From positions 5,272 to 69,271 of the forward strand of contig JARLHZ010000004.1 of NCBI GenBank assembly GCA_031291995.1: a DNA stretch of 64,000 nucleotides. The letters run 5' to 3'. A program made the translations under genes and the position numbers. This DNA is from Candidatus Doudnabacteria bacterium (lineage in GTDB: Bacteria; Patescibacteriota; Doudnabacteria; UBA920). The notes beneath the pieces are model-generated. The model saw only the letters and a list, made by a program, of their open reading frames with translations, made no database searches and was not told where the DNA came from. Positions 1-61,739 of this stretch are shown here, piece after piece (position 1 is the stretch's first letter; each line of letters opens with the position of its first letter).

Positions 1-2073
1 GACGGCACCGGCGTGGTCCATAACGCGGCCATGTATGGGGAAGAAGACTACCAGCTGGCCAAGGAAAAAGACCTGCCCCGTACAGACATGCTGGACCACA
101 AGGGCCGGTATCTCCCGATGGCTCCGGAAAATTTAAGGGGAGTGTTTTTTAAAGACGCGGAAAAAATCATCCTTAAGGAACTTCGCGAGAAAAATTTGGT
201 TTATAAAACCGAGCATTACAAACACAACTATCCTCACTGCTACCGCTGCGGCACGCCGCTGTTTTACAATGCTTTGCCGGCCTGGTTTATTAACATTCAA
301 AAAATCAAACCCGAGCTGGTAAAAAATAACCAGGACGTCAGCTGGTACCCCGAGCATTTAAAACACGGACGTTTCCAGCAGGGCGTGGAAAACGCGCCGG
401 ATTGGAATATTTCCCGCAACCGGTTTTGGGCCACGGCTTTGCCGTTTTGGAAATGCGAAAACGCGGATTGTAAAAATGTGACTTGTATCGGTTCGGTGGA
501 AGAACTGCGCCTAAAGTCCGTAAATTTTGCGGAGGTTTATCCGGAAACCGAATCGGAAATTAGGAATCGTGAATCGACAGATCCTAATTCGAAATTCCTA
601 ATTCAAAATTCCAATTTGGATTTGCATCGGCCATATATAGATCGTGTTAAACTTAAATGCGACAAATGCGGCGGCCAAATGGCCCGCATTCCCGAAGTCG
701 TGGACTGCTGGGTGGAAAGCGGCAGTATGCCGTTTGCCGAACTCCACGCGCCGTTTGAAAACCAGGAATTATTCAACAGCCGATTCCCATCCGATTTTGT
801 CGTCGAATATATTCCCCAGACCCGCGCCTGGTTTTATGTCATGCACGTGGTATCCACCATAATTTTCGGCAAAGCGCCGTTTAAAAACGTGGTCACAACC
901 GGAACGATTTTGGCCGAAGACGGCAGCAAAATGTCCAAGAGTAAAAATAATTATCCGGATCCGAATTTGGTCATAGAAAAATATGGCGCCGACGCCCTGC
1001 GTTTTTACCTGCTGACCAGCCCGGTGGTAACCGGTGAAGATTTAAATTTTTCCGAAAAAGGCGTGGCCGACATAGGGCGAAAAATTAACTCGCTGCTTTA
1101 CAATGTCTGGAGTTTTTACCGAATGTACTCAAAAGAGCAAATCAGTCTATCAGCTGATCAGCTTATCAGTTCGGACAGCCATATATTGGATAAGTGGATA
1201 GAGGCGCGGTTAAACCGGGTGCAGGTTGAGGTGACTAAACAGCTGGACGCTTACAATACGGTCAAAGCGGGGAAATCTTTGATTGAGTTCATAAATGACC
1301 TGTCCACCTGGTATTTGCGCCGCAGCCGCGACCGGCTCAAACTGCAAAACGAGGAAAGCAAACGGGTGGCCGCGGTCTTAGGGTTTGTCTTGGCTGAAAC
1401 CGCTAAACTTTTGGCGCCCTTTATGCCATTTTTGGCCGATTTCATTTATAAAGACGTCACCGGCCGGGAATCCGTCCATTTGGAATCATGGTCTAATGTC
1501 AATGCGGCCGCCATAGACAGCGACGTTTTAAATAAGATGGAAATTGTCCGCGAAGCCGTAACCCTGGGCCTGGCCGTAAGAAAAACCAAAAACTTTGCCG
1601 TGCGCCAGCCGCTACTGTCGCTGGCTTTTGATTTTCAGGACGAAAAAGTTGAGCTGGGAGGGGAATATGTTCAGCTGGTTTTGGATGAACTGAACGTCAA
1701 GCAAACCGACAATAATCTTTTGGATAAGAATTTGCGCTCCACAGATACCGTGGTGACGCCCGGAACGAAGGCCGTAAAAGCATTCTACCTGGACCTGCAT
1801 ATTACTCCCGAACTGAAACAGGAAGGCGTGGCACGGGAACTGGAGCGCGCCGTTCAGGATTTGCGCAAAAAAAGCGGGCTGAAGGTCGGCGATCTGGCGG
1901 ATATATACTACAATACCCAGGACGGCGATTTGGAAAATATTTTGCTGAAAATGCTCGACCGTAAAAAAACTTTCATTAGCCAAATCAGCAAAAGTCTGGA
2001 AGTGGAAGTCGACTTTGAAGTTCAGGCTGAAATTGACGGCAAGCCAATTTGGATGGGGATAGTCAAAATATAA
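1..2073 (+). CDS. ileS: isoleucyl-tRNA synthetase, C-terminal ~690 aa (gene starts upstream of window)
   Basis: KMSKS motif (KMSKSKNN), class I aaRS anticodon-binding region, CxxC knuckles (CYRCG, CDKCGG). The frame is open from position 1, so the listed start at 13 (GTG) is internal. Confidence 0.85.
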   Translation, partial: DGTGVVHNAAMYGEEDYQLAKEKDLPRTDMLDHKGRYLPMAPENLRGVFFKDAEKIILKELREKNLVYKTEHYKHNYPHCYRCGTPLFYNALPAWFINIQKIKPELVKNNQDVSWYPEHLKHGRFQQGVENAPDWNISRNRFWATALPFWKCENADCKNVTCIGSVEELRLKSVNFAEVYPETESEIRNRESTDPNSKFLIQNSNLDLHRPYIDRVKLKCDKCGGQMARIPEVVDCWVESGSMPFAELHAPFENQELFNSRFPSDFVVEYIPQTRAWFYVMHVVSTIIFGKAPFKNVVTTGTILAEDGSKMSKSKNNYPDPNLVIEKYGADALRFYLLTSPVVTGEDLNFSEKGVADIGRKINSLLYNVWSFYRMYSKEQISLSADQLISSDSHILDKWIEARLNRVQVEVTKQLDAYNTVKAGKSLIEFINDLSTWYLRRSRDRLKLQNEESKRVAAVLGFVLAETAKLLAPFMPFLADFIYKDVTGRESVHLESWSNVNAAAIDSDVLNKMEIVREAVTLGLAVRKTKNFAVRQPLLSLAFDFQDEKVELGGEYVQLVLDELNVKQTDNNLLDKNLRSTDTVVTPGTKAVKAFYLDLHITPELKQEGVARELERAVQDLRKKSGLKVGDLADIYYNTQDGDLENILLKMLDRKKTFISQISKSLEVEVDFEVQAEIDGKPIWMGIVKI

Positions 2074-2075
2074 TA

Positions 2076-2159
2076 TTTTACGAAGTACGAACGGATACGA
2101 ACTTACGAACCCGTTAAGTACGTCAGTTCGTATGTTCGTAAAATTTCGTACTTCGTAAA
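2076..2159. repeat. word-built palindromic hairpin (tacgaa/ttcgta family) between ileS and recO
   Basis: ttttacgaagtacgaa...ttcgtacttcgtaaa inverted arms. The right arm abuts the recO ATG. A near-identical element lies at 61660-61737. Confidence 0.7.
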
Positions 2160-9078: not shown

Positions 9079-9082
9079 ATAA

Positions 9083-9190
9083 TGCCAAATTTCAGATTTC
9101 AAATATCAAATCAATGGCGAAGTTTAAAATTTAAAATTTAAAATTAGGATTTGATTTAAAATTTTTAATTTAAAATTTGTAATTGTGTCC
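9083..9190. repeat. word-built hairpin, caaatttcaaat / atttgaaatttg family
   Basis: ccaaatttcagatttcaaatatcaaatc ... gatttaaaatttttaatttaaaatttgtaattg are inverted arms of A/T-rich words. Confidence 0.6.
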
Positions 9191-9192
9191 CA

Positions 9193-10095: not shown

Positions 10096-10098
10096 TAA

Positions 10099-10200
10099 TT
10101 CGAAATTGCAAATATCAAATTTCAAATCAAGGCCAATATCTTAATTTTTTAATTTGGCATTAAAAATTGATTTGAAATTTGTAATTTGGTATTTGTCATT
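10099..10200. repeat. word-built hairpin, caaatttcaaat family
   Basis: cgaaattgcaaatatcaaatttcaaatcaa ... ttgatttgaaatttgtaatttggtatttg. Confidence 0.6.
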
Positions 10201-14352: not shown

Positions 14353-14481
14353 ATAGTCACGGGTCTGCCGCCGAATATTTATGCTTAACGCGTTAGGCCT
14401 GACCCGGATAGTTATTTGCACTATAATTTGCATCCATCGGTTGCAAATAATTTCAATAAGCGTAAACTGTAGATAGCCATT

Positions 14482-14519
14482 TGGTAGACAAAACGTGCGG
14501 CCGCACGTTTTGTCTACCA
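14482..14519. repeat. 38-bp perfect palindrome, copy 1
   Basis: tggtagacaaaacgtgcggccgcacgttttgtctacca (centre GCGGCCGC). Confidence 0.9.
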
Positions 14520-14563
14520 ATATCAAATAAAAATTATTACAAGTAGTCTTAAAAATAAAGTTT

Positions 14564-15251: not shown

Positions 15252-15325
15252 GACTTACTTCTTTCAAAGCGGAACACATTTTTTAATGAGCTTCTGATAC
15301 TAGTCAAATAATCTAAAAATAAAAT

Positions 15326-15363
15326 TGGTAGACAAAACGCGCGGCCGCACGTTTTGTCTACCA
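15326..15363. repeat. 38-bp palindrome, copy 2 (one mismatch)
   Basis: tggtagacaaaacgcgcggccgcacgttttgtctacca. Confidence 0.9.
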
Positions 15364-15732
15364 AAGACAAGAGTTGTATTTTTATATTTATAGGCGATAT
15401 TGGCGAATGGCGCGGGTGGTGTGGCGTGGCAAATCAAATCGGATATTCTGAAGGCAATTTCGGTTTTAATCGACACTATTCCCCGGAGCCCCACTCCAGG
15501 GTTAACAATTATGTCATCCCGGAATTTTTCAGGGCTGTGAAAAATATCCGGGATCCAGTCAGGGCGGCATTCTGGATCCCGGCTCTCTACCTTCGTCAAG
15601 GCTACGGCAGACAAGTCGGATGTATTCGGCCGAGCTGATACACTAGCTATTTGGACTTGTTACCACGCTGCTCTGCCGCGGGGAGGGCTCATTGAAAATC
15701 TGATGCCAATCTTAATAATCTAGAAAGAAAAT

Positions 15733-15770
15733 TGGTAGACAAAACGTGCGGCCGCACGTTTTGTCTACCA
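15733..15770. repeat. 38-bp perfect palindrome, copy 3
   Basis: tggtagacaaaacgtgcggccgcacgttttgtctacca. Confidence 0.9.
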
Positions 15771-15955
15771 AAGACAGGTTTTGTTGAAATTATATTTTAT
15801 AGACGATATCGGTGCGTGGCGCGGGTGGTGCGGGGTGGAAAATCGTCCCGGATATTCTAAAGGTAATGTCGGTTTTATCTAATTTTTACCAATACACAAA
15901 ATTGTTCCGTTTCCCGTAGGTTTGCCGGACTATATTTTGACTTTAATTCACAAGT

Positions 15956-24782: not shown

Positions 24783-25181
24783 ATGGCAGATCAAAACAAA
24801 ATAATCCATAAGGATCTCAGTTATAAAATTGTCGGTGTTGCTTTTAGATCTTTTAAGGCAACAGGATATGGAATGCCTGAAAAGTACTGTCAAGGTGTGT
24901 TCGCTGCCGAACTTGAGAAAGCTGGGTTGCACTTTAATCGGGAAGTTTATGTTACTTTAAATTATGAAGGTAAAGTTATCACAAAGTATTTTTTAGATTT
25001 TATTGTTGAAGATTCGGTGGTTGTGGAATTAAAAGTTCGGCCAAAAATCGGATATGCCCATATTGAACAAGTAATGGCATACCTTAAAGCAACGAATAAG
25101 AAATTAGCGATTTTAATCTATTTTACCCAAGAAGGTGTGAAATATCGGAGAATCGTTAATTCTTACAACAAACTACAATGA
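24783..25181 (+). CDS. GxxExxY-family protein (PD-(D/E)XK-like)
   Basis: DLSYKIVGVAFRSFKATGYGMPEKYCQGVFAAELEKAGL...FLDFIVEDSVVVELKV...IEQVMAYLKATNKKLAILIYF. Confidence 0.7.
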   Translation: MADQNKIIHKDLSYKIVGVAFRSFKATGYGMPEKYCQGVFAAELEKAGLHFNREVYVTLNYEGKVITKYFLDFIVEDSVVVELKVRPKIGYAHIEQVMAYLKATNKKLAILIYFTQEGVKYRRIVNSYNKLQ

Positions 25182-25186
25182 GCAGG

Positions 25187-25222
25187 TTCGTATATTAATT
25201 TTAAATTTGTATATTCGCGATT
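25187..25222. repeat. right arm of the inverted repeat bracketing the GxxExxY gene
   Basis: ttcgtatattaattttaaatttgtatattcgcgatt. Confidence 0.7.
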
Positions 25223-25225
25223 ACT

Positions 25226-25909
25226 ATGAAGCTTGAAATGCAAAACAAAAAAAAGCCTATTGGGAAGCCGACGCAGAATTTTTTGCGTATTTCGGAAATA
25301 AAAAACGACACCGTGGTTATGGACGACGGAACTTTGCGGGTCATAATTATGGTGTCCAGCACCAATTTTGACTTAAAGAGCCAGGACGAACAGAATTCCA
25401 TTATTTTCGGTTTCCAGCGGTTTTTAAACAGCCTGGAATTTCCCGTCCAGATTCTCATGCAAAGCCGAAAAATGGAGATTGGCGGCTATTTGGAAAAATT
25501 AAAGAAATTGGCGGACAAGCAGACCAACGAGCTCCTCCGCGTCCAGACCAACGAATACGTGGAGTTTATTTCCCGGCTCATTGAGAACGCCAGCATTATG
25601 AATAAGAATTTTTATATTGTCGTCCCTCTGGGGGAAAGCATTTTTCCGGCCGCCGCGGGGTTCTTTAGCCGCGTATTCGGCAGGGGGCGGGAACGGGAAG
25701 TTACCGAGCGGATAGAAAATTTTGAAAAGGCCAAAGAAAAATTGGACAACCGCGCCACCTCGCTGGCCTCCAACCTTTCGGGTATTGGCATTCGGGCAGA
25801 ACGAATGAAGACGGAAGAAATTATCCAGCTGTATTATAATTCCTATAATTTTGAATCGGGCCCGCTGATAAACCCGGGAGAGCTTAAAGAAATCAAACTA
25901 TCACAATAA
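25226..25909 (+). CDS. protein resembling a VirB4/TrbE N-terminal domain (no ATPase motifs)
   Basis: FLRISEIKNDTVVMDDGTLRVIIMVSSTNFDLKSQDEQNSIIFGFQRFLNSLEFPVQILMQSR resembles the CagE/TrbE/VirB4 N-region. Confidence 0.3.
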   Translation: MKLEMQNKKKPIGKPTQNFLRISEIKNDTVVMDDGTLRVIIMVSSTNFDLKSQDEQNSIIFGFQRFLNSLEFPVQILMQSRKMEIGGYLEKLKKLADKQTNELLRVQTNEYVEFISRLIENASIMNKNFYIVVPLGESIFPAAAGFFSRVFGRGREREVTERIENFEKAKEKLDNRATSLASNLSGIGIRAERMKTEEIIQLYYNSYNFESGPLINPGELKEIKLSQ

Positions 25910-25923
25910 ATCAATTGATTAAT

Positions 25924-26030
25924 GTCAAATTATAAATATCAAATTTCAAATCAATGTCAAAGTTTGAAATTTAAAAAATTTGTAATTAGGTTTTGATTTG
26001 AAATTTGTAATTTGATATTTGAAATTTAAC
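25924..26030. repeat. word-built hairpin, caaatttcaaat family
   Basis: tgtcaaattataaatatcaaatttcaaatcaatgtcaaag ... ttttgatttgaaatttgtaatttgatatttgaaattt. Confidence 0.6.
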
Positions 26031-26032
26031 CT

Positions 26033-27880
26033 ATGTCTATTTTTAGCAAACTCACCGAACAGGATTTAGAACAAAAAAAGGCTCAGCTCAAGGAAAAGGA
26101 GAAGGAACATTCCCTGAGTTCGTCATTGGGCGATTTGGAAAAAACCTATAAGGAAGGCTTGACGACGTTAAAGGATATTATCGCGCCGTCGGCTTTAAAA
26201 TTTGAAGGGTCGCATTTTGAATTAAACGGCAAATACGGCCGCAGTTTTTTCGTGCTGGCCTATCCGCGCTTTTTGTCCAGCAACTGGCTGTCGTTTATAA
26301 TCCAGGCGGACGGAGCCCTGGATTTGTCGATGTTTATTTATCCCATAGACTCGGCGGACATTCTAAAAAAATTAAAGAGCAAGGTCGGGGAACTTGGTTC
26401 GCAAATGTCCATTAACCAGGAAAAGGGCATGGTCCGCGACCCGATGCTGGAGACGGCTTACAAAGACGTGGAAGGCCTGCGCGACAACTTAATGCAGGGT
26501 ACGGAAAAGTATTTTCGGTTCGCCCTGTACTTTACAATATACGCCAACGATTTAAAGGAACTGGACAAATCATCCTCGACCCTGGAAAGCAGCCTGGGGG
26601 CCAAGCTGATTGTTACCAAACGGGCGCTGCTTCAGACGCAGAACGGACTGAATTCCACGCTTCCCATGGGTTTGGACGAACTGGACGTGGCCAATAACAT
26701 GAATACCAGCCCGCTGTCCTCGTGTTTTCCTTTTGTGTCATCGGATTTGACTTCCAACGACGGGATTTTATACGGCATTAACCGACACAATAACAGTTTG
26801 ATATTATTTGACCGTTTTGCCATGGAAAATGCCAACTCCGTTGTGTTTGCCAAGTCCGGCGCGGGGAAGTCTTACGCGGTCAAATTGGAAGTTTTACGAA
26901 GTCTCATGGTTGGCACAGACGTTATTATCGTGGATCCGGAAAATGAGTACCAGCATTTGGCCGCGGCTGTTGGCGGAACTTATTTGAGCGTCAGTTTAAA
27001 TTCCCCGTCCCGCATTAACCCGTTTGATTTGCCGGTTGCCGTGGAAGGTGAAAGCAACGCGGACGTCCTGCGCAGTTCGGTTATTAACTTGCTGGGTTTG
27101 TTCAGTTTGATGCTGGGCAAGCTAAATCCCACCGAAGAAGCCATTATGGACAAGGCCATTTGGCAAACTTACGCCAAAAAAGATATTACATCCGAATTGG
27201 AAGATTTTAAAAACATTGAGTGCCCGACCATGAACGATTTGATGGAAATTTTAAACAGCATGGTCGGAGCCGAGAGCCTGGCTCAGCGGCTGACCAAATT
27301 TACCGAAGGCACTTTTGGCGGATTGCTAAACCAGGCGACCAACGTGGTGCTTAACAACCAGCTGGTGGTATTTTCCATCCGCGATTTGGAAGAGGAACTG
27401 AGGCCAATAGCCATGTATATTATTTTAAATTACATTTGGAATGTCGTCCGCAGCGAATTAAAGCGCCGCATTCTGGCCGTGGACGAAGCCTGGATACTCA
27501 TGCAGCATGAAGACAGCGCCAGGTTCCTGTTCGGTATTGCCAAACGCGCCCGTAAATATTACCTTGGCCTGACCACCATTACCCAGGACGTGGCCGACTT
27601 TTTGGCCAGCCCCTACGGCAAACCGATTGTGACCAACTCGTCCATCCAAATGTTGTTAAAACAATCCCCGGCGGCTATTAATGTAATCGCTGAAACATTC
27701 TTTTTGACCGAGGGAGAAAAATATTTATTGCTGGAAAGCGAAGTCGGCGAAGGGATATTTTTTGCCGGGCTGAAGCACGCGGCCATCAAAATTTACGCGT
27801 CCTACGTGGAAGACCAAATAATTACCACCGACCCCAAACAGCTTTTGGAAATTCAGGACAGCCAGGAAAAGTTGAACTAA
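26033..27880 (+). CDS. VirB4/TrbE-family type IV secretion ATPase
   Basis: Walker A FAKSGAGKSYAV, Walker B ILAVDEAWILM, and a VirB4-like N-region (GKYGRSFFVLAYPRFLSSNWLSFII...DLSMFIYPID). Confidence 0.65.
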   Translation: MSIFSKLTEQDLEQKKAQLKEKEKEHSLSSSLGDLEKTYKEGLTTLKDIIAPSALKFEGSHFELNGKYGRSFFVLAYPRFLSSNWLSFIIQADGALDLSMFIYPIDSADILKKLKSKVGELGSQMSINQEKGMVRDPMLETAYKDVEGLRDNLMQGTEKYFRFALYFTIYANDLKELDKSSSTLESSLGAKLIVTKRALLQTQNGLNSTLPMGLDELDVANNMNTSPLSSCFPFVSSDLTSNDGILYGINRHNNSLILFDRFAMENANSVVFAKSGAGKSYAVKLEVLRSLMVGTDVIIVDPENEYQHLAAAVGGTYLSVSLNSPSRINPFDLPVAVEGESNADVLRSSVINLLGLFSLMLGKLNPTEEAIMDKAIWQTYAKKDITSELEDFKNIECPTMNDLMEILNSMVGAESLAQRLTKFTEGTFGGLLNQATNVVLNNQLVVFSIRDLEEELRPIAMYIILNYIWNVVRSELKRRILAVDEAWILMQHEDSARFLFGIAKRARKYYLGLTTITQDVADFLASPYGKPIVTNSSIQMLLKQSPAAINVIAETFFLTEGEKYLLLESEVGEGIFFAGLKHAAIKIYASYVEDQIITTDPKQLLEIQDSQEKLN

Positions 27881-28040
27881 TTTCAAATTACAAATAACAA
27901 ATTTCAAATAAATTCCTAATTTTAAGCGCCAAATAATATCCAAAAGGCCGCGTGTTAAATTTCAAAAGTCCGGGTTTGGCCTTTGAAATTTGGATTTTGG
28001 CGTTGGTTTGATATTTGGAATTTGTAATTTGGAATTTTTT
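27881..28040. repeat. word-built hairpin(s), caaatttcaaat family
   Basis: tttcaaattacaaataacaaatttcaaat ... atttgaaatttggattttggcgttggtttgatatttggaatttgtaatttggaat. Confidence 0.6.
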
Positions 28041-28045
28041 ATTTT

Positions 28046-33445: not shown

Positions 33446-33454
33446 GAATAAACT

Positions 33455-33640
33455 GACAAGATTGACATAATTGAACAAAATTGACAAGATTATCATAGTA
33501 TAACCTTGTCAATTTTTTTTGGCTCGGCATTCTTTACACCAGGAACTACTTAGCAAAAATCGTTTATGATATTCCTGTCAATCCTGTCAATCCTGTCAAT
33601 CTTGTCAATCTTGTCAATCATTTTACTCTTGTCAATCATC
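33455..33640. repeat. word-built inverted arrays (ttgacaag x3 upstream, cctgtcaat/cttgtcaat x6 downstream) around a terminator hairpin
   Basis: ctgacaagattgacataattgaacaaaattgacaagatt ... hairpin ttgacaagattatcatagtataaccttgtcaa followed by an 8-T run ... cctgtcaatcctgtcaatcctgtcaatcttgtcaatcttgtcaatc. Confidence 0.6.
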
Positions 33641-33642
33641 CC

Positions 33643-48288: not shown

Positions 48289-48471
48289 AATTGCCCAAGA
48301 TTAAATAAAACTAAATAAAGGTTCCCCGCCGCAAGCAGCGGGGTATTACTGCAAAGACATCGCTACAATTGCGCGGCGAGCCGCGCGGTATTGAACCTGT
48401 ATTATCTCCTCGGCTCGCTCGGCCATAAATGGCCGGACTCGCTCTACGTCGCTAATAAAATTTGCTACAAA

Positions 48472-48516
48472 TCAATTTTACTTAATTTTACTTAATTTTA
48501 GTAATTTTACTTAATG
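48472..48516. repeat. short tandem direct repeats (ttttacttaat x3-4)
   Basis: tcaattttacttaattttacttaattttagtaattttacttaatg immediately upstream of the ROK gene. Confidence 0.6.
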
Positions 48517-48521
48517 AATTT

Positions 48522-49754: not shown

Positions 49755-49829
49755 AATAATTGTACAAAACCCGCCAAGAGTATGGCGGGTTTTGAACGGA
49801 TTTATTCGCGTAAATTTGGGTATCATTAT

Positions 49830-58983: not shown

Positions 58984-59068
58984 ATTAGGAATGATGAATT
59001 AGGAATGATGAATTAGGAATTATGAGTTTGTCCCATTCCTAATTCCTAATTCCTAATTCCTAATTCCA
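58984..59068. repeat. word-built hairpin (taggaa/ttccta family)
   Basis: aattaggaatgatgaattaggaatgatgaattaggaattatg ... cattcctaattcctaattcctaattcctaattcc. Confidence 0.7.
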
Positions 59069-59071
59069 ACT

Positions 59072-60881: not shown

Positions 60882-60944
60882 GAATTAGGAAGTAGGAATA
60901 AGGAAACTCCTAACTCCTACTTCCTAACTCCTAAATCCTAATTC
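60866..60944. repeat. word-built hairpin (taggaa/ttccta family)
   Basis: ttaggaattaggaagtaggaataaggaaactcctaactcctacttcctaactcctaaatcctaattc. Confidence 0.7.
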
Positions 60945-61658
60945 ATGAAAGGCATCATACTCTCCGGCGGAACGGGCACGCGCCTTTATCCGCTGACCAA
61001 AGTCACATCCAAACAGCTTCTGCCGGTCTATAACCGGCCGATGATTATGTATCCGCTGGATACTTTGCTTAAGGCCGGCATAAATGAGATTTTAATAATT
61101 GTTTCTCCCGAACACGCGGAGGATTACGGCAAACTTTTGGGCGACGGCGGCGAATTCGGCTGCCGAATAGTCTATAAAGTTCAGGACAAGCCGGAAGGGC
61201 TGGCTCAGGCATTTATTTTAGGGCAGGAATTCATAGGCAATGACAGCGTGTGCATGATTTTGGGCGACAATATTTTTGAAGATGATTTTTCGGGTGTCAT
61301 CAAGAATTTTAAAAGCGGCGGACAAGTCTTCGCCAAGGCGGTAACGGATCCTGAGCGCTTTGGGGTGGTTAAGTTTAACGATAAAATGCAGGCCGTTAAA
61401 ATAGAAGAAAAACCTAAGGAATTTCTATCTAATTTTGCCATTACCGGCTTATATATTTACGATAACCGCGTGGCCGAGGTGGCAAAACAGGTTAAGCCTT
61501 CCGCGCGCGGCGAATTGGAAATAACCGAATTGCATAATTGGTATTTAACGCGCGGCGAATTAAAAGTGGATTTGGTTAAAGGGGAATGGGTGGATGCCGG
61601 AACTTTTGAATCCCTGTTCCATGCCGGCGAACTAATGCGCCGTAAAGCCACGGGGTAA
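60945..61658 (+). CDS. rfbA: glucose-1-phosphate thymidylyltransferase (short form)
   Basis: MKGIILSGGTGTRLYPLTKVTSKQLLPVYNRPMIMYPL. Confidence 0.8.
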   Translation: MKGIILSGGTGTRLYPLTKVTSKQLLPVYNRPMIMYPLDTLLKAGINEILIIVSPEHAEDYGKLLGDGGEFGCRIVYKVQDKPEGLAQAFILGQEFIGNDSVCMILGDNIFEDDFSGVIKNFKSGGQVFAKAVTDPERFGVVKFNDKMQAVKIEEKPKEFLSNFAITGLYIYDNRVAEVAKQVKPSARGELEITELHNWYLTRGELKVDLVKGEWVDAGTFESLFHAGELMRRKATG

Positions 61659-61737
61659 TTTACGAAGTACGAAGTTTTACGAACCTACGAACGCGCGAAC
61701 TTCGTAAGTTCGTACCTCTTCGTACTTCGTAAACTCC
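61659..61737. repeat. word-built hairpin (tacgaa/ttcgta family), near-copy of 2076-2159
   Basis: tttacgaagtacgaagttttacgaacctacgaacgcgcgaacttcgtaagttcgtacctcttcgtacttcgtaaactc. The right arm abuts the ATG at 61740. Confidence 0.7.
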
Positions 61738-61739
61738 AT

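Follow-up and report, generated by a model that had tools for sequence, protein, structure and literature searches.

The origin, mobility and function of the intervening sequences (IVSs) of bacterial rRNA have been questions since about 1990. Helix 45 of 23S rRNA is a classical site of IVS insertion, as is helix 25. [quoted passage not shown] Excision by RNase III, with no religation, is known for the IVSs of Coxiella, Salmonella and Leptospira, and the origin of IVSs was called unclear in the same 2016 Coxiella paper (PMC4990558). IVS-type insertions and 23S_rRNA_IVP ORFs are also on record for the rRNA genes of CPR bacteria (PMC11270868).

The stretch of 64,000 nucleotides of Candidatus Doudnabacteria DNA analysed here (the window) contains two hairpins, E1 and E2, each of which consists of four TACGAA hexamers, a loop, and four TTCGTA hexamers, at the positions where the original prediction had placed a pair of tacgaa/ttcgta hairpins. 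Their parts are as follows.

2076-2159 (+): E1, whole element, in the ileS-recO spacer; the spacer stretch runs to 2162
2076..2109 (+): E1 left arm, TTT followed by TACGAA-g-TACGAA-cgga-TACGAA-ct-TACGAA; hexamer part 2079-2109
2110..2126 (+): E1 loop, 17 nt, cccgttaagtacgtcag, with no conservation relative to the E2 loop
2127..2162 (+): E1 right arm, TTCGTA-tg-TTCGTA-aaat-TTCGTA-c-TTCGTA, then the tail AAACTC; hexamer part 2127-2157
61658-61737 (+): E2, whole element, in the spacer between an NTP-transferase (rfbA-like) gene and a gene for 318 aa; the spacer stretch runs to 61739
61658..61691 (+): E2 left arm, (A)TTT followed by TACGAA-g-TACGAA-gttt-TACGAA-cc-TACGAA; hexamer part 61661-61691
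61692..61700 (+): E2 loop, 9 nt, cgcgcgaac
61701..61739 (+): E2 right arm, TTCGTA-ag-TTCGTA-cctc-TTCGTA-c-TTCGTA, then the tail AAACTCCAT; hexamer part 61701-61731

The left-arm hexamers of E1 start at 2079, 2086, 2096 and 2104, and both elements have a hexamer-start spacing of 7-10-8 (left arm) and 8-10-7 (right arm). The outer TTT/AAA flanks of E1 pair as well, which widens the inverted repeat to 2076-2159, and CTC is next. The ileS stop codon ends at 2073, leaving a gap of 2 nt to E1, and the recO ATG is at 2163, 3 nt past the end of the element. RecO homologues of 235-240 aa, which align over 99-100% of the query, support this ATG as the true recO start. The RecO of the window is itself 100% identical to an NCBI protein from Candidatus Doudnabacteria. 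The upstream NTP-transferase (rfbA-like) gene (60945-61658) overlaps E2 by the final base of its stop codon; the flank pairing of E2 extends to 61737, and the downstream ATG is found 2 nt on, at 61740. The gene that starts there, which had been described as encoding a membrane protein, has a product of 318 aa without a Pfam family. The right arm thus ends 2-3 nt before the downstream ATG in both cases, and its closeness to the start codon, as first described, was confirmed.

The arms of the two hairpins had also been called near-identical. This is correct for the hexamers, which agree at 48 of 48 positions, and for the outer flanks, but not for the N4 and N2 spacers, which agree at 4 of 14 positions, or for the loops (17 and 9 nt), which are unrelated. 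When both copies and both strands are aligned, conservation is limited to the hexamers, the base that separates hexamer 1 from hexamer 2, and the TTT/AAA flanks; within each element the spacers of 4 and 2 nt are non-complementary, and they differ between E1 and E2. Because of the divergent spacers and unrelated loops, E1 and E2 are not recent duplicates. The suggestion of a recent transposition of the same element is, therefore, not supported, since E1 and E2 agree no better than by chance at their unconstrained positions; what is supported is a single repeat family, with dispersed copies and a site variably occupied in relatives.

The 13-mer TACGAAGTACGAA occurs four times in the window versus 0.02 times expected, and 0 of 100 shuffles reproduced this. 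TACGAA alone occurs 38 times versus 31 expected, with 16 of the 38 inside E1 and E2, so the hexamer is not enriched elsewhere. Chance or low complexity as the source of E1 and E2 is excluded by the shuffles together with the recurrence of the module across genomes (see below). The predicted RNA folding energies are -40.5 kcal/mol for E1 and -43.6 kcal/mol for E2 (z = -7.9 and -8.9, respectively). The opposite strand is equally foldable, the range for both strands being about -40 to -48 kcal/mol (z of -7 to -10). The terminal inverted repeats form an interrupted stem of ~29 bp, as do those of the IVS class. Mismatches showed no sense-strand bias (28 G.U versus 23 A.C) and, therefore, provide no positive evidence for selection on RNA structure over DNA sequence. 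In Rfam 15, no family matches E1 or E2, and the only gathering-score matches of the window are three tRNAs; at E <= 1, E1 gave generic matches to miRNA-precursor-like hairpins only, far under threshold.

A scan for the pattern TACGAAGTACGAA-N2-6-TACGAA, with one genome per species, matched at least 112 genome loci, compared with a chance expectation of ~20 for the whole collection by a rough uniform-composition estimate. Among the matches listed (at least 112), 79 carry Patescibacteria/CPR names, the named lineages being Saccharibacteria, Doudnabacteria, Moranbacteria, Parcubacteria/Paceibacterota, and Yonath-, Azam-, Terry-, Jorgensen-, Portnoy- and Tagabacteria, and a minority of the listed loci are labelled Bacteroidota, Bdellovibrionota or others. 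The arm module recurs with the same spacing across the listed loci. There are 185 arms among the matches listed, and 58 adjacent pairs are convergent, with a TACGAA arm followed by a TTCGTA arm. Convergent loops are mostly 0-52 nt and reach 691 nt, and divergent pairs are never less than 369 nt apart. Each arm is a fixed array of four TAC-N-AA hexamers (TACGAA here), inverted around a loop of any length, and the family occurs in three forms, namely gene-less spacer hairpins, arms that flank a GxxExxY gene, and insertions in 23S rRNA. Carriage by phages was dismissed, as the viral collection gave a single match in 2.9 million viral contigs.

Two other arrangements of the arms were seen. At five loci of the Saccharibacteria genome SRP167671_co2_238 (L056, L059, L076, L101 and L103), TACGAA arms form the outer boundaries of longer elements. 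These elements have another inverted repeat further inside (ctgtcattccggacttgatccggaat ...) and are repeated at intervals of 1-2 kb. The four-hexamer arm is also present as tandem direct repeats, with four units in a Bacteroidia MAG (L080, 1-180) and two units at L038 (7738-7831).

The association with GxxExxY genes was found in three long convergent pairs (L015, L036 and L089, from a Flavobacteriales, a Saccharibacteria and a Paceibacterota genome between them), each of which encloses an ORF of 110-133 aa belonging to this family (TIGR04256; Pfam PDDEXK_3). At L036, no more than 1 nt of loop is left on either side of the ORF. In an independent sample of 80 metagenome loci, which were picked by the GxxExxY protein alone with no use of the DNA motif, inverted repeats scoring at least 30 flanked 42 of 65 GxxExxY ORFs versus 4 of 103 neighbouring ORFs. 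These arms are arrays of the TAC-N-AA type (TACGAA, TACAAA(T) and TACTAA(T)), with GCGAAT and ACAGAT occurring as well, and their hexamer spacing clusters at 7-8, 10-12 and 8-9. A canonical TACGAA-type arm adjoins 20 of 69 distinct GxxExxY ORFs; conversely, 28 of the 54 canonical TACGAA arms in 200 kb adjoin such ORFs, and the arms around the gene at L183 are exactly of the E1/E2 type. For 41 of 49 GxxExxY ORFs, the genes on both sides have the same orientation as the ORF. Genes for four-helix-bundle proteins are flanked likewise, at L158, at L057 and in the window itself, where a cassette of each kind is present.

23749-24123: four-helix-bundle (23S rRNA IVS protein) gene, between CAAAT/ATTTG (TACAAAT-type) arms
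24654..24690 (+): left arm of the GxxExxY cassette, a degenerate 36-nt arm, TAATCGCGAATATACAAATTTTAAATAATATACGAA
24783..25181 (+): GxxExxY gene (TIGR04256 / PF13366), PD-(D/E)XK nuclease fold, the cargo of the cassette
25187..25223 (+): right arm of the GxxExxY cassette, degenerate, TTCGTATATTAATTTTAAATTTGTATATTCGCGATTA, 2 nt before the next ATG at 25226

The two cassettes stand side by side. As regards the optional S23p-type loop ORF of the IVS class, the four-helix-bundle gene of the window stands between TACAAAT-type arms, TACGAA-type arms carry GxxExxY genes, and E1 and E2 contain no ORF. Next to the two cassettes are genes for a PrgI-family protein (24201-24653) and for a TraG/VirB4-like ATPase (26033-27880), and the region 24201-27880 resembles a type IV secretion cluster or a conjugation-like one.

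The GxxExxY protein of the window is a candidate trans-acting factor. Its AlphaFold2 model has a pLDDT of 90, residues D72, E82 and K84 are conserved, and a search by sequence found no solved structure. A fold search with the model returned generic PD-(D/E)XK relatives (Cas4 SSO0001, lambda exonuclease, MGME1, a splicing endonuclease and Hjc), predicted similarities that would be compatible with a DNA or an RNA substrate. The type of hexamer, defined by G, A or T as its fourth base, did not co-vary with GxxExxY phylogeny, the similarity values being 0.499 versus 0.491 (permutation p = 0.18, n = 30). The nuclease carried as cargo may, accordingly, not be the reader of the hexamers.

A family with inverted repeats at the element ends, numerous dispersed copies, an interior that varies in length, and sites occupied in one genome but empty in another is also what one would expect of ordinary MITEs, that is, deletion derivatives of a DDE-transposase insertion sequence that are mobilised in trans. 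However, no target-site duplication was detected for 44 full elements (30 had none and 12 had 1 nt, as expected by chance), and none of the long pairs showed a transposase between its arms. In convergent pairs 100-2500 bp apart, the longest ORF was a GxxExxY ORF or a short unannotated one, the comparison of between-arm ORFs with Pfam/NCBIfam having covered the three GxxExxY ORFs only. GxxExxY and four-helix-bundle genes alone recur as cargo, and the hexamers are identical across class-level lineages. We consider an origin as MITEs highly improbable. The marks of a mobile or selfish family are nevertheless evident from the dispersed copies and from a site that is occupied in some relatives and empty in others. 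We infer mobility from these marks, because target-site duplications are absent and neither insertion nor excision was observed as an event.

The third form of the family connects it to the IVSs. The link comes from one 23S rRNA gene, that of L024, a Paceibacterota MAG, which contains two TACGAA hairpins.

1-2153 (minus strand): 23S rRNA gene of L024
697-758: TACGAA hairpin 1 of L024, which replaces the tip of the helix before GGUAGGGGAGC, that is, helix 45
1276-1337: TACGAA hairpin 2 of L024, inserted (71 nt) in the tip of a hairpin close to position 690 of the model

Both rRNA hairpins fold as stems. From these insertions and the parallels with the Coxiella and CPR IVSs, we conclude that the TACGAA hairpin is an IVS-type element that is far commoner between protein genes. 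E1 and E2 are of the latter kind, and thus are not inserted in an rRNA helix as IVSs are.

One could also envision that E1 and E2 are cis-regulatory RNA hairpins of the host, functioning either as terminators for the upstream gene or by occluding the start region, so that translation of recO and of the membrane-protein gene would require coupling to upstream translation or opening of the stem. The stems begin 2-5 nt past the upstream stop codon and finish 2-3 nt short of the ATG, they fold with high stability, and operon-internal positions are favoured, as 31 of 33 clear full-element cases are in co-directional spacers compared with a base rate of 76% (p = 0.007). Full elements fill the spacer, leaving 2-15 nt behind the upstream stop codon and 2-17 nt ahead of the downstream start codon, and lone arms are TACGAA-sense after stop codons and TTCGTA-sense before start codons. 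The terminator function that had been proposed is not borne out. There is no T-run, the tails are AAACTCATG and AAACTCCATATG, and a terminator scan called neither element; canonical terminators with a GC stem and T-run are present elsewhere in the window, for example at 49755-49829. The flanking genes of the family are diverse housekeeping genes (S3, L16, L4, S5, L15-SecY, CysRS, Def, Fmt, GreA, NrdR, UvrD, KsgA and pilus genes) among which we found no common regulon. Some copies reside inside the essential S10/spc ribosomal-protein operons, and a strong terminator is unlikely because these operons need read-through.

With respect to translation, it is true that no Shine-Dalgarno (SD) sequence is left at either hairpin, as had been pointed out, but this is uninformative because the whole genome scarcely uses SD sites, an SD-like motif being located upstream of only 2 of 59 window genes. 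The loss of the SD site can, for the same reason, no longer be taken as a mark of special translation control, and the scarcity counts against a role in start occlusion. The window suggests that this genome uses very short leaders or leaderless mRNAs. The upstream regions in the window are A/T-rich, and several have TATAAT-like boxes ~10-20 nt before the ATG. At E1 and E2, a promoter scan detected no sigma-70-like promoter between the upstream gene and the downstream start.

Comparison of the ileS-recO spacer among Doudnabacteria lineages showed that different repeat families occupy this one spot. In the relative whose RecO is 71% identical, the spacer contains a hairpin with ATTAGA-type arms, and in relatives with RecO proteins of 66-69% and 53% identity the hairpins have four GAAATA repeats per arm (L113-L118 and L202 are the loci with hairpins of these other families). 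The L200 spacer, next to a RecO of 55% identity, is 39 nt long and has no hairpin, and a hairpin is, therefore, not required at this site. At other orthologous sites, the hexamers are retained and the spacers are not: hexamers agree at 47/48 and spacers at 4/14 positions between L073 and L112, where both flanking proteins are 70-76% identical, and at 48/48 and 3/14 between L001 and L045, where the flank is 61% identical, with the hexamer identities subject to an ascertainment bias because these elements were found via the motif. Nearly everything is identical between L008 and L045, where the flank is 95% identical. The near-identical hairpins of this last pair (L008 1430-1517 and L045 1002-1089) come from contigs labelled Doudnabacteria and Saccharibacteria, which could be due to a binning or taxonomy error or to recent transfer.

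Because the hexamers are intact while the spacers are at chance-level identity, we infer that a protein with sequence specificity reads the hexamers. Intact hexamers with scrambled spacers imply either host-level constraint or repeated re-insertion at hot spots. A purely selfish and immobile relic would decay, and the intact hexamers point away from such a relic. The suggestion of host-level constraint is in keeping with a cis-regulatory hairpin. On the other hand, selection on structure only would predict covariation and not one hexamer across class-level Patescibacteria lineages, the spacers are not kept complementary, the L200 relative has the same spacer without the hairpin, and identical arms flank selfish-type genes and split an rRNA. 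We think that a host regulatory hairpin is unlikely.

Alternatively, the hexamers might constitute a double-stranded DNA binding-site array for a conserved host protein (nucleoid-associated, replication, segregation or repressor), with the hairpin as a by-product of symmetry. Such an array would account for the conservation of the hexamers and of the 7-10-8 geometry while spacers and loops are free, for mismatches without strand asymmetry, and for the occurrence of lone arms and of tandem direct arms (L038, L080). It would not account for arms that are nearly always convergent and close, or for the copies at rRNA helix tips, which make sense only by an RNA-level or insertion logic. Neither a common regulon nor a candidate factor was identified, and hexamer centres 7, 10 and 8 bp apart would not, by our own reasoning, lie on one face of B-DNA. 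This explanation seems quite improbable to us. LexA/Cheo boxes, loxP-like sites, DNA uptake sequences, a resemblance to the sarcin-ricin loop and the STRR heptamer repeats of cyanobacteria were considered as well and set aside.

We favour, as the probable explanation, that E1 and E2 are gene-less, IVS-type selfish palindromes that were acquired by insertion and that RNase III probably cuts once the operon has been transcribed. The elements would have been inserted into short operon spacers by a mechanism that leaves no target-site duplication, and insertion into short spacers would be why they touch the upstream stop and downstream start. They would then be co-transcribed in the ileS-recO and rfbA-membrane-protein transcripts and fold into the interrupted stem of ~29 bp. 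By analogy with the rRNA IVSs, RNase III may cut this stem, thereby splitting the cistrons and freeing the downstream start region. The original prediction had raised the processing of the stem as a condition for initiation, and processing is the most plausible RNA fate because the same hairpin type is an rRNA IVS, a class that is cut by RNase III. A motif search of the window found no RNase III gene, which is uninformative since the window covers no more than 64 kb of this genome. More speculatively, a cassette protein might bind the hexamer array, the candidate readers being the GxxExxY PD-(D/E)XK nuclease and the pentameric four-helix-bundle S23p/Avd-like protein.

A broader proposal, which we offer tentatively and as a possibility rather than an expectation, is that TAC-N-AA arrays are the recognition sites of a mobilising or processing protein, and that IVSs, GxxExxY/S23p cassettes and intergenic hairpins all belong to a single, so far unrecognised class of mobile elements with hairpin ends, which would punctuate the operons and rRNAs of Patescibacteria and be removed at the RNA level. 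If this is true, then a single class of mobile element would provide a mechanism for the spread of bacterial IVSs.

Tandem-repeat-arm hairpins are general in this genome, since the window has several such families. A second family, with (T)(T/A)CAAAT / ATTTG(A/T) tandem arms (the TACAAAT type), was observed at 9079-9192, 10096-10195, 25910-26032 and 27881-28045, and its hairpins fill the spacers between genes; the split copy at 23697-23748 and 24124-24200 is the one that encloses the four-helix-bundle gene. A third family has TAGGAAT / ATTCCTA arms and is located at 58984-59071 and 60882-60944, in spacers of a dTDP-sugar (rml-like) cluster just upstream of E2. Two long spacers, 33446-33642 and 48289-48521, contain six copies of TGTCAATC facing GATTGACA repeats, and TTTTACTTAA repeats, and end just before start codons. 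A perfect 40-bp palindrome, TTGGTAGACAAAACGTGCGG joined to CCGCACGTTTTGTCTACCAA, is present at 14481-14520, 15732-15771 and 15325-15364 (two identical copies and one variant), and its sequence is unrelated to the hexamer hairpins. The spacer at 22009-22172 has two direct copies of a small hairpin motif (gtgtggtatataaaccacgg).

The TACGAA module ties together the rRNA IVSs, two very large families of small genes (GxxExxY and four-helix-bundle S23p), and the intergenic hairpins of Patescibacteria. The hexamer array is a defined candidate substrate for binding or cleavage, which makes the IVS question testable, and the elements reside in operons, including ribosomal-protein operons, of organisms that are now culturable and genetically manipulable. 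There is also a caution for annotation, in that stable hairpins abutting start codons in these genomes without SD sites are repeat elements and not gene-specific regulators. In our literature search, no paper described the TACGAA module or placed elements of the IVS type between protein-coding genes, and curators or subscription journals may have noted such elements.

Among the described systems with which the hairpins can be compared, the REP and BIME sequences of Proteobacteria are GTAG-headed palindromes with an associated RAYT (TnpA-REP) gene. Like REPs, BIMEs and REPINs, the TACGAA elements are short, imperfect, multi-copy palindromes in transcribed operon spacers, their conserved sequence implies a protein reader, and target-site duplications are absent. 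They differ in that they have no GTAG head, no RAYT gene was seen beside any copy, the arms are four-hexamer arrays instead of a single palindrome, and the associated genes encode GxxExxY and four-helix-bundle proteins. The attC sites of integrons are defined by R''/R' core sites (RYYYAAC / GTTRRRY) and a linked integrase. Both attC sites and the TACGAA hairpins are imperfect palindromes of variable length between co-directional ORFs, touching stop and start, with conserved ends and a free centre. In contrast to attC, the ends of E1 and E2 lack the GTTRRRY core, no integrase was found among the 20 window ORFs scanned against Pfam, the neighbours of TACGAA hairpins are essential housekeeping genes, and an ORF, where present, is inside the palindrome and not beside it.

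RNase III cleavage of the hairpins in the early region of phage T7 is experimentally established; it yields separate mRNAs and can free a downstream start. E1 and E2 resemble these hairpins in being interrupted stems with internal loops between polycistronic cistrons, whereas the T7 hairpins are not a cross-phylum repeat family with invariant hexamers, and of the two it is for T7 that cleavage is established. The rRNA IVSs provide the last comparison. E1 and E2 are set apart from them by their location in operon spacers between protein-coding genes, the TACGAA family by its fixed four-hexamer 7-10-8 array conserved across Patescibacteria classes, and the commonest cargo of TACGAA arms is the GxxExxY PD-(D/E)XK nuclease in place of the S23p of IVSs; RNase III excision is established for IVSs and would apply to TACGAA hairpins by analogy. 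What the two share is terminal inverted repeats that form a stem of ~28-30 bp, arms composed of short repeats in tandem (GACAGAT in Coxiella; the cassettes L192, L174 and L180 have arms of the ACAGAT type), a loop that may carry an S23p or four-helix-bundle ORF, and insertion at helix tips, as with the TACGAA hairpin at the tip of helix 45 in one Paceibacterota 23S rRNA gene.
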